Shown: one piece after another, positions 4,024-55,826 of the stretch
Layout: the number at the start of each line of letters is the position of its first letter
Numbering within the stretch: position 1 is the first letter of the stretch
IMG/VR virus record: IMGVR_UViG_3300033757_000347
Source: a virus
Taxonomy: Duplodnaviria > Caudoviricetes
Length of the DNA stretch: 64,000 nt
Direction: 5' to 3' (one strand)
Notes under the pieces: generated by a model
Told to the model about the DNA's origin: nothing
The model's input: only the letters and a program-made list of their open reading frames with translations
Database searches by the model: none
Program-made: the position numbers and the translations under genes

Positions 4024-4626
4024 ATGTTACCAAAGGATAAAGAATGTCCATTTTGTCATAAATTTTATTCTACTGCAGGAATAGGTACACATATTTGGAG
4101 AAACCACGGAGAAGGCAAACAACACGATCCAAATATTAATTACAAAAATGGACGTATTGTGTGGAATAAAAACTTAACCAAAGAAACTAACGAAAGTGTT
4201 AAAAGCATGGCTGAAAAACAAAAAGCTTTGGTTAGACCTAAAAAATCTGAAGAAACTCGTAAAAAAATATCGATTGCTGCAAAAGCTAGAGGATTTGGAG
4301 GGTATCGGCCTCACCCAAATAGAGGCGAACGATACAAAGGAATTTGGTTTGATTCCAAATGGGAAGTTAAAGTTGCTAAATCTTTAGACGAAAATCAAAT
4401 AAGATGGGAAAGACCGAAAATCGGATTTGTTTGGTCTGACGCCGGAAATAAGTACTATCCTGATTTTTATCTTATAGATTACGACGTATATTTGGATCCT
4501 AAAAATTCGTATTTGATGATTAAGGACGCTGAAAAAATACACGAATCTCAAAAACGAAACAATATTAAAGTTCTAGTATTAACTGAACACTTCCTTAATT
4601 GGGAAAAAATAAAATTGCTCTTGTAG
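4024..4626 (+). CDS. putative homing endonuclease, C2H2 finger + NUMOD3 + PD-(D/E)XK domain
   Basis: CPFC..H...H, SEETRKKIS, DSKWE...YYPDFYL...YLDPK. Confidence 0.75.
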   Translation: MLPKDKECPFCHKFYSTAGIGTHIWRNHGEGKQHDPNINYKNGRIVWNKNLTKETNESVKSMAEKQKALVRPKKSEETRKKISIAAKARGFGGYRPHPNRGERYKGIWFDSKWEVKVAKSLDENQIRWERPKIGFVWSDAGNKYYPDFYLIDYDVYLDPKNSYLMIKDAEKIHESQKRNNIKVLVLTEHFLNWEKIKLLL

Positions 4627-4687
4627 TTAAATGGCATAACGCATCCTTGGTAAGGATGAATTTCGAGTTCGATTCTCGATTTGAGCT
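4617..4687 (+). tRNA. tRNA-Thr(GGT)
   Basis: CATCC-TTGGTAA-GGATG. Confidence 0.82.
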
Positions 4688-4690
4688 CAC

Positions 4691-4886
4691 AGTTAATCGA
4701 AAGTACTTAACGCGGGAAACTGAGGAAATTGGTGCCACCTTTGCTGGTTGTCGGAGCTTAACAGCGTTCGTACGACATTGGTGCAAGTCAAACAGGCTTA
4801 GAGGGTCAGCAACTCTACGATAGCCGGGTTGATGCTAAGATAAATGTTAGGTGAGAAACAGAAGTCCAATTACGAAACGATTAACT
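4691..4886 (+). ncRNA. rnpB: minimal RNase P RNA
   Basis: P1 AGTTAATCG/CGATTAACT, P2 ACTTAAC/GTTAGGT, GAGGAAA-P4 (AATTGG-T-GC/GTCCAATT), GGTGCAAGTCAAACAGG, AGATAAATG and AACAGAA conserved blocks. Confidence 0.8.
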
Positions 4887-4890
4887 TTTT

Positions 4891-4962
4891 GCAGGAATAG
4901 CTCAGAGGTAGAGCATCTCGTTGCCAACGAGAGGGTCGTGAGTCCGATTCTCATTTCCTGCT
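4891..4962 (+). tRNA. tRNA-Gly(GCC)
   Basis: TCTCG-TTGCCAA-CGAGA, U73. Confidence 0.85.
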
Positions 4963-5016
4963 CAGATCAAGGTTAAGTGCAAAGGTTCACATATAAATAA
5001 AATAAAGTGATTTTGC

Positions 5017-5622
5017 ATGAAAACCAAAAGAGAATTGATAAACGAAAAAATAAGTAAATCATTAAAAGGTAGAGGAAATCCTAAATCTATAAAGATTTGC
5101 GAACACTGTCAAACTAAATTTGAAGTAGAATGGCGAAAACGAAACCAAAGATTCTGCAGTCGATCGTGTAGAGCAAAATCCATAAAGTTTTCAACCGAAT
5201 CAATTCAGAAAATGTCTATTAGTAAGAGCGGAGAAAACAATCCAATGTTTGGGGTTTCACCGAAAAATACTAAGAAAATTGAAGTTTATTCAGAAAAACA
5301 TTTAGGTAATAAGCAGTTCTTAGTAAGATCCACTTATGAAAAAGAATACGTTGATACTCTTACTTCTAATCCTAAAGTCGTATCTTTTGAATATGAACCT
5401 CGTAAATTCAAGTGCAAGTATTTCATAAATGGAAAATACCGAACGTATCAACCAGATTTCTTGGTAAATGAAATAGACCGGGAATACGTTATTGAAATAA
5501 AAGCAAGTTGGCAAATAGAAAGTGAAGAAACACAGCTTAAAGCTAACGCATTTAGATCAACTCATCTAATCAATTATGAAATAATTACTGACACATGCAG
5601 AAAGAGTGTATACGGAAACTGA
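5017..5622 (+). CDS. putative homing endonuclease, TnsA-like PD-(D/E)XK nuclease
   Basis: CEHC..FCSRSC, RSTYE...YEP...TYQPDFLV...IEIK. Confidence 0.75.
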   Translation: MKTKRELINEKISKSLKGRGNPKSIKICEHCQTKFEVEWRKRNQRFCSRSCRAKSIKFSTESIQKMSISKSGENNPMFGVSPKNTKKIEVYSEKHLGNKQFLVRSTYEKEYVDTLTSNPKVVSFEYEPRKFKCKYFINGKYRTYQPDFLVNEIDREYVIEIKASWQIESEETQLKANAFRSTHLINYEIITDTCRKSVYGN

Positions 5623-37030: not shown

Positions 37031-37435
37031 ATGAAAGCTCTATTTCAAGCACGAAAGATACAAGTAAAGGAGAGTCCTGTCCACGGTTGGGGAGTCTTCG
37101 CGACAGAAGACATAGAGAACAACGAACTCATAGAAGAGTGCGCTTTCGTCGAACTGCCAATAGCGTACGGAGAATCGTCTTCTCTTCTTATCGATTACCG
37201 GTTCAACTACCCGGCTGGCCCGATGACTCCCGAAACCAAGCAAGTTGCGGTTCTCGGGTACGGCATGCTGTACAATCACAGATCTCCAAACAATGCATAC
37301 TGGGTAACTGATACTGCATCTCGCAGTTTTAAGTTTTACTCGTGTGCCCCTATTAAAGCCGGAGAGGAAATTTTTCTGTACTACGGCGGAGAAGATTATT
37401 GGAAAGACGGAAGGTCAAACACTAAAGTAAAGTAA
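37031..37435 (+). CDS. SET-domain protein (lysine methyltransferase-like)
   Basis: SPVHGWGVFATEDI, LYNHRSPNNA, IKAGEEIFLYYG. Confidence 0.88.
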   Translation: MKALFQARKIQVKESPVHGWGVFATEDIENNELIEECAFVELPIAYGESSSLLIDYRFNYPAGPMTPETKQVAVLGYGMLYNHRSPNNAYWVTDTASRSFKFYSCAPIKAGEEIFLYYGGEDYWKDGRSNTKVK

Positions 37436-53884: not shown

Positions 53885-54138
53885 TTTCCTATTACGTTAT
53901 GTAGATTTTTTACTAACAATTTTAGCCAAGGTTTGGCTCTAACGACAGTTCGCTCAGGATCGTCGAACTGAACTTTTTCTCCGTCCCATATTCCGTGAAG
54001 AGGCTCGATCTTTCTGACCTTCTTTCCGTTTACGTAAGCCGATTTAGCATCAAGGTATTCTACCAGATCTCCTGGTTCAATATTATCTGTTTGGGTTCCC
54101 GCAGGTCTTCCGTAATCGTCAAAATCTTTATAGCTCAT
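53881..54138 (-). CDS. hypothetical protein
   Basis: Overlapping ORF between polymerase and primase. Confidence 0.6.
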   Translation of the reverse strand: MSYKDFDDYGRPAGTQTDNIEPGDLVEYLDAKSAYVNGKKVRKIEPLHGIWDGEKVQFDDPERTVVRAKPWLKLLVKNLHNVIGK

Positions 54139-55741
54139 CTTTCATCTCTTCAAGTTCAGCCTCGTTAAAAACGGTTACTTTTTTGGCTAAAATCTTCATC
54201 ACTCGAGAATAGGCAGCTTTGGTTGAGATACCTGTGTTTGCTTCCTTGTTCTTAGCCTTTGATTTTACCCAATTATCATCACTCCAACTCTTTTCCCAAC
54301 CATTTTCTTGCAGTACTTTAGCCATTTCCTCGTACGGGATAGCGAATGGATCCTCTACTTCGATACCCTTTTTCTTTGCTATCCGTTCTCTGTACTTCTG
54401 AAGTTCAGGCTTCGGCACGATAACTGTCGACAATCCATACAGACTGATGACCGAGATAAACGTTGGAAACAGATCGGCTGGCACCTGAACTTCCGGATTT
54501 CCGACGAAATCCTGAACCGTTGCTGGAATCTCTTCGAATTCAAGAGTTTCTGAATTTACAACGTAAAGTGGGTACAGATCCTCGCGTTTTGGGTTCTTTG
54601 CTCTGCTGCGAGACCGTACCATCTCCACGTGGCGTGTCAGTTTTGAGTTGATTTCTGAGTAGCCCATTGCTAAGAGCAGCTTGTTGATCGGTTCGACGAT
54701 CAACCTGAAGAATTGCTGTTCTCTGTCTATTGGTATCGCAAAATCTGGAAACACGCCAGGGGCGTAAGCGAACACGTCAAATTCGTAATCGTTGGTGGTT
54801 GGATCGCAGTAGTAGAATTTGATCTTCGAACCTCCGCGAATCATCGCGTACTTTTGGTTCTCGGTCTTGGTGATGATGTGATTGTGGTAGGCGGCCGCTC
54901 TGCCGTAGATTGGCATTCCCGTTCCTATGACGAGAGGGTTCAAGCTCTTCACGTGTTCCTCGTAGACTCGAACGTTGAAGTTGAAAGCTATGCTGTCGAT
55001 CGACATCGTTTCCATCTCGTTCTTCATTTCCTGCATGACAGGAATGAGGTCCTTTTCCAGGTCAAGGTCGTAACCCTTTGCTAGAAGGATCCAGTAAATC
55101 TTCTTGAGGTTCTCTCTAGCCCAGATTGGGTAAGAGGACTGTATCGCTTCCAAACCTTTGATCATCAGGGTAGGTTTCGGAAGAATCTTTGAACCTTTTG
55201 TCGCTACTTCAAGAACGTACTTTTTCTTAGCGACTAAGATGCCTGCTCTAGAAACGTTTTCGAGTTCGAAAACCAAGCGGTTCTTAGTGTGGAAGTGATT
55301 TGCATACTTTTCAAAAGCAGCTTTAAAGTAATCGTCCAGTCGGTACTTGTTGATGGCTAAGCAAATTTCCAAAGCTTTCATGTCGTCCATCTCGATGCCT
55401 TGCACAGATTTGATTGCGTACTCAATGCAAAAGTACACAGAATCGGTGTCAGTGTAGATAGCCGCTTCGCTCTCGATCGGTTGTATCACGTGGCCAACGA
55501 TTCCAAGCTTCTCGTGAAGCTCGGTGTCAAGGTGCCACCTGTTTCGAAAGTAGTGGTTTATTGCTTTGATTGTGAATTTGATAAGGTCCTGACCCTGAAG
55601 GGTGATGGACTGCGCTATGTCGTTGTTGTGGAAGTAAAAATAACGATTGCCAAACGCTCCGTAAAACGAGTTAATGAGAATCTTTATAGCGTTCTGTTTT
55701 AAGTCTAACGACTTTATCTGTTGATCTAGTGTTGTTTCCAT
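54128..55741 (-). CDS. family B DNA polymerase, C-terminal subunit (split gp43)
   Basis: Starts at KILINSFYGA, has YTDTDS and KKKY; lacks exonuclease and motif A. Confidence 0.88.
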   Translation of the reverse strand: METTLDQQIKSLDLKQNAIKILINSFYGAFGNRYFYFHNNDIAQSITLQGQDLIKFTIKAINHYFRNRWHLDTELHEKLGIVGHVIQPIESEAAIYTDTDSVYFCIEYAIKSVQGIEMDDMKALEICLAINKYRLDDYFKAAFEKYANHFHTKNRLVFELENVSRAGILVAKKKYVLEVATKGSKILPKPTLMIKGLEAIQSSYPIWARENLKKIYWILLAKGYDLDLEKDLIPVMQEMKNEMETMSIDSIAFNFNVRVYEEHVKSLNPLVIGTGMPIYGRAAAYHNHIITKTENQKYAMIRGGSKIKFYYCDPTTNDYEFDVFAYAPGVFPDFAIPIDREQQFFRLIVEPINKLLLAMGYSEINSKLTRHVEMVRSRSRAKNPKREDLYPLYVVNSETLEFEEIPATVQDFVGNPEVQVPADLFPTFISVISLYGLSTVIVPKPELQKYRERIAKKKGIEVEDPFAIPYEEMAKVLQENGWEKSWSDDNWVKSKAKNKEANTGISTKAAYSRVMKILAKKVTVFNEAELEEMKDEL

Positions 55742-55826
55742 GTTTTATTTTATCAGTCAATCACCAAAAAGTTTAGATAAGTCTAAATCTTTTTATGGTG
55801 CATTCATATAAATAAAATAAAAACAA

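Follow-up and report, generated by a model that had tools for sequence, protein, structure and literature searches.

Ribonuclease P (RNase P) RNA is regarded as a ribozyme of cells and organelles. The described forms closest to the one reported here are the bacterial type A RNAs (rnpB; Escherichia coli M1 RNA and Thermotoga maritima P RNA; Rfam family RF00010), the archaeal type T RNAs of the Thermoproteaceae (Pyrobaculum, Caldivirga and Vulcanisaeta; RF02357) and engineered RNAs that consist of the catalytic domain (C-domain). We looked at a 196-nt RNA gene at positions 4691-4886 of a 64,000-nt stretch of phage DNA, which we call the window. The window belongs to a 174,479-bp IMG/VR virus record (IMGVR_UViG_3300033757_000347) that is about 67% complete, comes from an anaerobic digester metagenome and carries a tailed phage gene set, with a portal protein, a DNA polymerase, helicases and a Lon-like protease. 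An initial annotation of the locus had proposed a stripped-down phage RNase P RNA. This proposal is borne out by homology to RNase P models, by a model built with the closest clade left out, by covariation that includes both pseudoknots and by the tRNA array in which the gene sits. Our reading, which we would put at roughly two chances in three, is that the gene specifies a catalytic-domain RNase P RNA derived from type A, which would be freed from the array, bound by the protein RnpA and used to cleave the 5' leaders of the phage's precursor tRNAs (pre-tRNAs).

Like the type A RNAs, the phage RNA has the helix order P1 to P6 followed by P15 to P17, a 7-bp P2, the conserved regions CR-I, CR-IV and CR-V, the GGU of internal loop L15, a 3-nt J5/15 and both pseudoknots, and members of its family align end to end with RF00010. 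Unlike them, it is about half the size, with a 40-nt stub in the place of P7 to P14, CR-II and CR-III, no P18 and a P3 of only 3 bp. In the subgroup to which the window RNA belongs the P4 bulge is shifted as well. Further differences are that the gene is phage-borne and lies in a tRNA array, and that the window RNA itself has no RF00010 match.

The type T RNAs are also natural catalytic domains of about 200 nt in which most of the specificity domain (S-domain) is gone (PMC3579882), and they too are missed by standard models. They are cellular, derive from archaeal type A, and have a 3-bp P2 and a 2-nt linker between P5 and P15 (PMC3579882), whereas the phage RNA has a 7-bp P2, the 3-nt linker CAA and bacterial type A affinities. 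We considered type T membership and rejected it because the lengths of P2 and the linker differ, the ancestry differs and there is no RF02357 match. As far as sequence comparison goes, the resemblance is a case of convergent reduction. With regard to the engineered RNAs, one report describes the E. coli C-domain alone (CP RPR) as still cleaving at reduced efficiency (PMC5839562). These RNAs resemble ours in being a catalytic domain without an S-domain, but they are laboratory truncations, whereas the phage gene occurs in nature, is conserved, lacks P18 and has a stub module of its own.

The landmarks that had been picked out in the window RNA (P1, P2, a tiny P3, GAGGAAA running into P4, GCAAG, and AACAGAA running into the 3' strand of P4) are all in place, and Table 1 lists them with the other parts of the gene. 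CR-I and CR-V form the P4 pseudoknot with the conserved A-U pairs that are a feature of RNase P RNA. J5/7 pairs with the P17 loop in the P6 pseudoknot, as in type A, and the type A arm of P15, P16 and P17 is present with GGU in its internal loop. In relatives, the GG-U residues of this loop align with CGGGUA of RF00010. The GCAA at 4783-4786 is followed by GUCAAACAGG, and the stretch from P15 to the P2 3' strand holds CR-IV, whose general form is AGNNNAAUG. An S-domain with CR-II and CR-III, the part that reads the tRNA elbow, was not found. The earlier estimate of about 45 nt in its place comes down to 40 nt between the P5 strands (4740-4779), and the S-domain positions of the models are deleted in the alignments. 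P18 is absent, as had been noted, and there is no room for it because CR-IV directly joins the 3' strand of P2. The short P3 is within the range of 3 to 8 bp found in relatives.

At gathering thresholds, Rfam finds tRNAs only in the window. A cmsearch with RNase P models had been suggested as a check, and it does find the RNA: the archaeal model RF00373 matches it over the full model length (positions 1-288). The score is 37.7 bits against a gathering score of 84, with an E-value of 1.9e-9 for the local stretch and 2e-10 for the 174-kb record. GAGGAAA, GCAAG, AGAUAAAUG and ACAGAAG lie beneath the conserved blocks of this model. RF00010 (type A), RF00011 (type B) and RF02357 (type T) gave no match to the window RNA at E <= 10 on the scale of the record. 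By Rfam alone the window RNA would pass as a divergent RNase P look-alike. We found no blastn match for the window RNA among 50,697 GenBank phage records, nor for its typical relative L203 among GenBank phage records.

To collect relatives, we scanned viral contigs for GAGGAAA, a gap, AGAUAAAUG, a gap and ACAGAA, with spacing short enough to exclude an S-domain and P18. This gave 23 loci, which were 10 real homologs and 13 chance matches in coding DNA. With a tighter pattern on metagenome contigs there were at least about 30 further distinct members among the matches listed, about 70 of which were chance matches in one coding gene from the human gut. A relaxed motif scan of the same kind over 185,579 prokaryote genomes (one per species) gave at least 120 matches, and those inspected among the matches listed were all chance occurrences in coding DNA, so that absence from cellular genomes cannot be claimed. 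Exact-motif patterns undercount the family: the member in LR756502.1 has GAGGAAG and AGACAAAUG. Members found by the scans are 177-220 nt long, and the family as a whole spans about 180-240 nt. A terminal P1 helix is present in 37 of 38 members with sequences that differ among them, and 75% of members have a helix of at least 9 bp at their ends, against 12% of shuffled flanks; since pairing comes readily to AT-rich flanks, this control discriminates only moderately.

Typical relatives match RF00010 end to end with 46-72 bits and E-values down to 5e-20. When L203 is aligned to the type A model, about 140 S-domain positions are reduced to about 25 nt and the 23 positions of P18 to 1 nt. From 21 typical, more distant viral and metagenomic members we built a covariance model, R1, from which the window's subgroup was wholly excluded and whose structure does not contain the P4 and P6 pseudoknots. 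On the 64-kb window, R1 gives a single strong match at 4697-4881 (123.1 bits, E about 1e-34, model positions 1-188). It has one match in each of 40 real loci and scores the five sequences of the subgroup at 118-123 bits. There is also a weak partial match at 37353-37391 on the plus strand (15.1 bits, E 0.004, model positions 49-87 in the stub region), which is probably due to chance and which we treated as noise. Because R1 recognizes the window RNA with its own subgroup excluded, and because the relatives match RF00010, the window RNA is, on homology, a member of a family of phage mini RNase P RNAs and this family descends from bacterial type A.

These results bear on whether the gene could specify some other kind of structured RNA found in tRNA arrays, resembling a tRNA or a Y RNA, that has no relation to RNase P and carries the motifs by chance. 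What speaks for this is that folding the single sequence by minimum free energy does no better on either strand than folding shuffled sequences (z = -0.21, about -0.2), a result which is expected and uninformative because the RNA has two pseudoknots. The idea is close to refuted by the end-to-end matches to RNase P models, by the chain of homology through the family to RF00010, by the scores of at most 24 bits that R1 gives to 100 cellular loci (741 kb) with the three motifs by chance, and by the covariation of both RNase P pseudoknots.

We looked at covariation in a MAFFT alignment of 25 sequences. In a blind scan of all column pairs, P2, P4, P5, P6, the stub helix, P15, P16 and P17 all emerge as stacks of covarying pairs. 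In the main helices, 94.3% of cells are paired, compared with 30-41% when the partners are slid by 1-3 columns, and both partners vary in 28 of the 37 pairs. Their covariation score is 0.646, against 0.08-0.11 for the slid controls, and was reached by none of 500 shuffles. The helices were partly picked from the same alignment, which is a caveat for these figures; they do agree with the canonical helices of RNase P, an independent prior. Among the single helices, P2 changes on both sides in 5 of 7 pairs across the family, the stub helix covaries, and P6 is 89-91% paired (20-56% when slid) with UA, CG and GC in exchange. CR-V (ACAGAA) and the UUA that follows it are invariant. In a second alignment of 40 sequences made with R1, P4 and P6 together are 94.5% paired against 23-46% when slid, and 11 of 12 pairs change on both sides; since P4 and P6 are absent from R1, the structure of the model cannot bias this count.

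The window's subgroup consists of the window RNA and loci L012, L271, L008 and L018, with a mean identity of 94%. In a model of 56 pairs, 98.6% of the pairs hold across these five sequences. Compensatory changes occur in five pairs (in P2, the stub hairpin, P15, P16 and P17) and in none for any slid control. Within P2 a C-G becomes U-A and a U.G becomes C-G or U-A, and in the stub helix a C-G becomes U-A. P4, P5, P6, CR-I, CR-IV, CR-V and L15 are invariant within the subgroup. The subgroup has the lowest Rfam scores of the family and a P4 that is not canonical, which would fit a decaying relic, a phage RNase P RNA gene that was active in the past and is now a pseudogene without function. We consider this very unlikely, because five diverged relatives keep their pairs through compensatory changes around an invariant core, the borders of the element are sharply conserved where the flanks diverge, and the order tRNA-Thr, RNA, tRNA-Gly is maintained in the array.

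Next to the RNA itself, the question is which protein it would work with. The 67%-complete record has neither an RnpA gene nor a gene for a CCA-adding enzyme. RnpA is also absent in 9 of the 10 other family-bearing viral records, including one that is 100% complete (terminal repeats) and one that is 90% complete. LR756502.1, a published 642-kb uncultured phage, has an unannotated mini RNase P RNA at 614659-614806 on the minus strand (L307, 567-766; R1 123.8 bits). Its RnpA, at 525189-525473 on the plus strand (L308, 387-692), scores 52.5 bits with TIGR00188 against an NCBI equivalog cut-off of 38.35, has the RNR motif and matches PDB 1A6F. Judged by these matches, LR756502.1 carries both subunits of a bacterial-type RNase P. 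Because the family descends from type A and this huge phage encodes both subunits, a bacterial RnpA-type partner is plausible, and in most of the phages it would be supplied by the host.

Instead, the RNA might be an active ribozyme that does without bacterial RnpA. It would then act in vivo as RNA alone or be helped by an unrecognised phage protein that makes up for the lost S-domain. The absence of RnpA from 10 of the 11 family-bearing viral records searched, among them the 100% and 90% complete ones just named, would fit this, and so would P3, which lies in the usual protein-proximal region and is cut to 3 bp. However, the hosts supply RnpA and LR756502.1 encodes one. The open reading frames (ORFs) that flank the RNA are of homing-endonuclease types or belong to no family and are therefore not cofactor candidates, and no conserved neighbour gene was seen. 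Type A RNAs acting alone require unphysiological salt. We regard an RnpA-free ribozyme as unlikely.

P4 is where the window RNA departs from its family. The bulged U of P4 is treated as universal in RNase P RNAs, and in 33 of 40 family members the helix has the expected 3 bp, a bulged U and 5 bp, with 7 of 8 pairs covarying. The initial annotation had remarked on an AU-rich P4 with an apparently shifted bulge, and this holds up. In the subgroup, the best duplex has 6 bp, the bulged U4733, and then a G.U and a C-G pair, which moves the bulge by 3 nt (three base pairs). In the canonical register 6 of the 8 pairs form in the window RNA and two mismatches are left. The window RNA does not have a bulged U after the third P4 pair, although a U (U4730) is present there, as it is in all 39 of 39 aligned sequences. 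The predicted energy of the P4 duplex is -5.9 in the subgroup against about -10 kcal/mol. From this duplex prediction, P4 is re-registered in the subgroup, and activity may be reduced or altered. The shifted bulge is the main reason why we hold our confidence in activity below our confidence in identity. As a separate observation, locus L241 (355-551, plus strand) departs from the bulged U in another natural way, with an 8-bp P4 that is uninterrupted by any bulge.

Several points count against an active tRNA-processing enzyme in this phage. Changes to the bulge lower catalysis in the RNase P RNAs of E. coli and Bacillus subtilis. In the subgroup, U4730, which occupies the canonical bulge position, lies opposite A4868 and can pair with it, and P4 is invariant in the five sequences, which means that its register is not checkable by covariation. 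The incomplete record has no RnpA gene, and the window RNA stays below the RF00373 gathering score and has no match to the other three models. Close relatives of the element in contigs of three metatranscriptome studies speak for the reading, but these contigs show no strand, ends or level, are uninformative where they give no cover and could come from DNA carry-over. We nevertheless consider a tRNA 5'-processing ribozyme to be the reading best supported by the comparisons, with a stronger case for the family than for the subgroup.

With P4 out of the register of 33 of 40 relatives, a weaker predicted P4 duplex and no RnpA gene in a record that is 67% complete, one can also think of a catalytically impaired decoy. 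Such an RNA would keep the surfaces for RnpA and substrate, cleave poorly and titrate host RnpA or pre-tRNAs, whether to damp host tRNA maturation or to time the release of phage tRNAs. A decoy would have no need of the other core motifs, yet the subgroup shows no variation in GAGGAAA, GCAA, AGAUAAAUG, ACAGAA, the L15 GGU or the A-U pairs that open P4, and U4730 is kept throughout the aligned sequences. We think a decoy is unlikely, while giving it more weight than any other alternative discussed here. Slightly less credible to us, and speculative, is that the shifted bulge is an adaptation, in which a re-registered RNase P takes over host RnpA with an altered choice of cleavage site or range of substrates. 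If that were true, it might also process tRNA-like modules in the Y-RNA-like, Ro60-associated RNAs of this array, or it might keep working while infection exposes the host's RNase P or tRNA pool to attack. The initial annotation had likewise suggested scaffold RNAs as substrates, an idea to which the present results lend no specific support.

Other mini forms lack an S-domain as well and lie in or near the tRNA arrays of large phages (L221, L049, L249, LR756502.1 and the DLP6 copy described below). They differ from the window RNA in having a canonical P4 wherever it can be aligned. L221 (4263-4477, plus strand) keeps P18, has 18 nt in place of the S-domain and matches RF00010 with 136 bits, which is above the gathering score of 100. 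R1 gives L221 45 bits, and the range for L221, L049 and L249 is only 32-46 bits. On these scores L221, and similarly L049 and L249, are probably separate, independent reductions. Stenotrophomonas phage vB_SmaS-DLP_6 (DLP6; L310) has an unannotated member of 239 nt at 105777-106015 on the plus strand of KU682439.2. It scores 66.5 bits with R1 (E 1e-17) and 28.5 bits with RF00010, and lies in the phage's tRNA array between a hypothetical coding sequence and a tRNA-Arg, 10 nt upstream of the tRNA-Arg.

The window has 41 tRNA genes by Rfam tRNA and ARAGORN, and the window RNA lies in a same-strand tRNA array of a large phage, as is typical of the family. The tRNA-Thr upstream of the RNA has the same synteny in L012, L008 and L018, and the tRNA-Gly downstream is likewise a neighbour in L012, L008, L018 and L271. 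Across the family, tRNAs are present at 28 of 36 loci, often with a same-strand tRNA just 0-5 nt away from the RNA. In assemblies of four public runs, the likeness to relatives starts at 4691 and ends at 4885/4886, the ends of P1, while the flanks are unrelated; the borders of the element are therefore fixed at the P1 ends. No promoter-like or terminator-like signal above chance was found near the RNA at 4691-4886. The RNA is probably co-transcribed with the tRNA array. Its 5' end would then be set by 3' processing of the tRNA-Thr, and its 3' end would be freed by RNase P cleavage at the 5' end of the tRNA-Gly. It would fold into P1 to P5 and P15 to P17 with the P4 and P6 pseudoknots and bind a bacterial RnpA-type protein, which for this phage would be the host's own.

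The enzyme would then cleave the 5' leaders of the tightly packed phage pre-tRNAs, and we expect that it would grip them by the acceptor end (L15 GGU with C74/C75; J5/15 with N-1) and not by the tRNA elbow. The GGU of L15 in type A RNAs contacts the tRNA 3' CCA (C74/C75). A248 of type A RNase P RNA prefers a U at -1 (PMC6582537). In the window, a C directly follows the discriminator base in 40 of 41 tRNA genes (the full CCA is encoded in only 14), and most of the leaders end in U. Both would suit an enzyme whose L15 GGU and J5/15 recognise the acceptor end, as in type A.

Table 1. Parts of the phage RNase P RNA gene and the two neighbouring tRNA genes, in window coordinates.
Feature	Positions	Strand	Remarks
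tRNA-Thr(GGU)	4617-4688	+	ARAGORN and Rfam tRNA; end 2 nt 5' of P1
Minimal RNase P RNA gene	4691-4886	+	196 nt, P1 5' end to P1 3' end; RF00373, model R1, borders in public assemblies
P1 5' strand AGUUAAUCG	4691-4699	+	9 bp with 4878-4886
P2 5' strand ACUUAAC	4705-4711	+	7 bp with 4846-4852 (GUUAGGU)
P3 hairpin CGG-GAAA-CUG	4713-4722	+	3 bp; strands 4713-4715/4720-4722, GAAA loop
CR-I / J3/4 motif GAGGAAA	4722-4728	+	Invariant in 25-sequence alignment; under conserved GAGGAAA of Rfam models
P4 5' strand AAUUGG-U-GC	4727-4735	+	Eight pairs with 4864-4871; U4733 bulged
P5 5' strand CACC	4736-4739	+	With 4780-4783 (GGUG); 99% paired, 3 of 4 pairs change on both sides
Stub replacing the S-domain	4740-4779	+	40 nt; helix 4749-4753/4773-4777; small hairpin 4756-4757/4764-4765; conserved GGAG and GUAC loop residues
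P6 pseudoknot 5' strand UUGC	4741-4744	+	With 4809-4812 (GCAA) in the P17 loop
J5/15 (CAA) and P15-P16-P17 arm	4784-4833	+	
P15	4787-4791/4829-4833	+	Covaries
P16	4795-4798/4822-4825	+	Covaries
P17	4799-4803/4813-4817	+	Covaries
GGGU, 3' side of internal loop (L15)	4826-4829	+	Holds GGU; GG-U residues conserved
CR-IV motif AGAUAAAUG	4838-4846	+	Runs straight into P2 3' strand; matches conserved block of Rfam models
J2/4 and P4 3' strand	4853-4871	+	J2/4 with CR-V ACAGAA 4858-4863, then P4 3' strand 4864-4871 (GUCCAAUU)
P1 3' strand CGAUUAACU	4878-4886	+	
tRNA-Gly(GCC)	4891-4963	+	ARAGORN and Rfam; starts 4 nt (UUUU) past P1

Some other observations concern the array and its surroundings. Spacers between adjacent tRNAs in the window are often just 5-15 nt. 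A tRNA with the anticodon CUA (amber suppressor; called tRNA-Pyl by ARAGORN) is found at 21251-21322 on the plus strand, and there is another in the family-bearing phage contig L011. A 200-aa ORF at 4024-4626 (plus strand), with no Pfam family, has its 3' end within the 5' part of the tRNA-Thr gene. The ORFs at 5017-5622, 2149-2739 and 7688-8338 are NUMOD3, TnsA-like or GIY-YIG homing-endonuclease types and are dispersed in the tRNA array. A 542-aa ORF at 9132-10760 (plus strand) has weak matches to the TROVE and Ro60-vWA domains, all just under the Pfam cut-offs, which is consistent with a Ro60-like gene. At 54128-57395, a 537-aa piece of DNA polymerase on the minus strand adjoins a 522-aa HNH homing-endonuclease ORF on the plus strand, and the polymerase gene may be split there.

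A full-text literature search, with most subscription journals outside its reach, found no publication on an RNase P RNA encoded by a virus. These genes escape current annotation, as they score below the Rfam thresholds and are not annotated in their GenBank records. If our reading is right, large phages carry a tRNA-maturing enzyme along with their tRNAs, and one 642-kb phage would have both of its subunits. A natural form of 196 nt that has lost the S-domain and P18 and kept both pseudoknots would define a minimal bacterial-type catalytic core, reached independently of type T. The window's subgroup would be a natural experiment on the bulged U of P4, and a cultured phage-host pair, Stenotrophomonas phage DLP6 and its host, makes the question testable at the bench.

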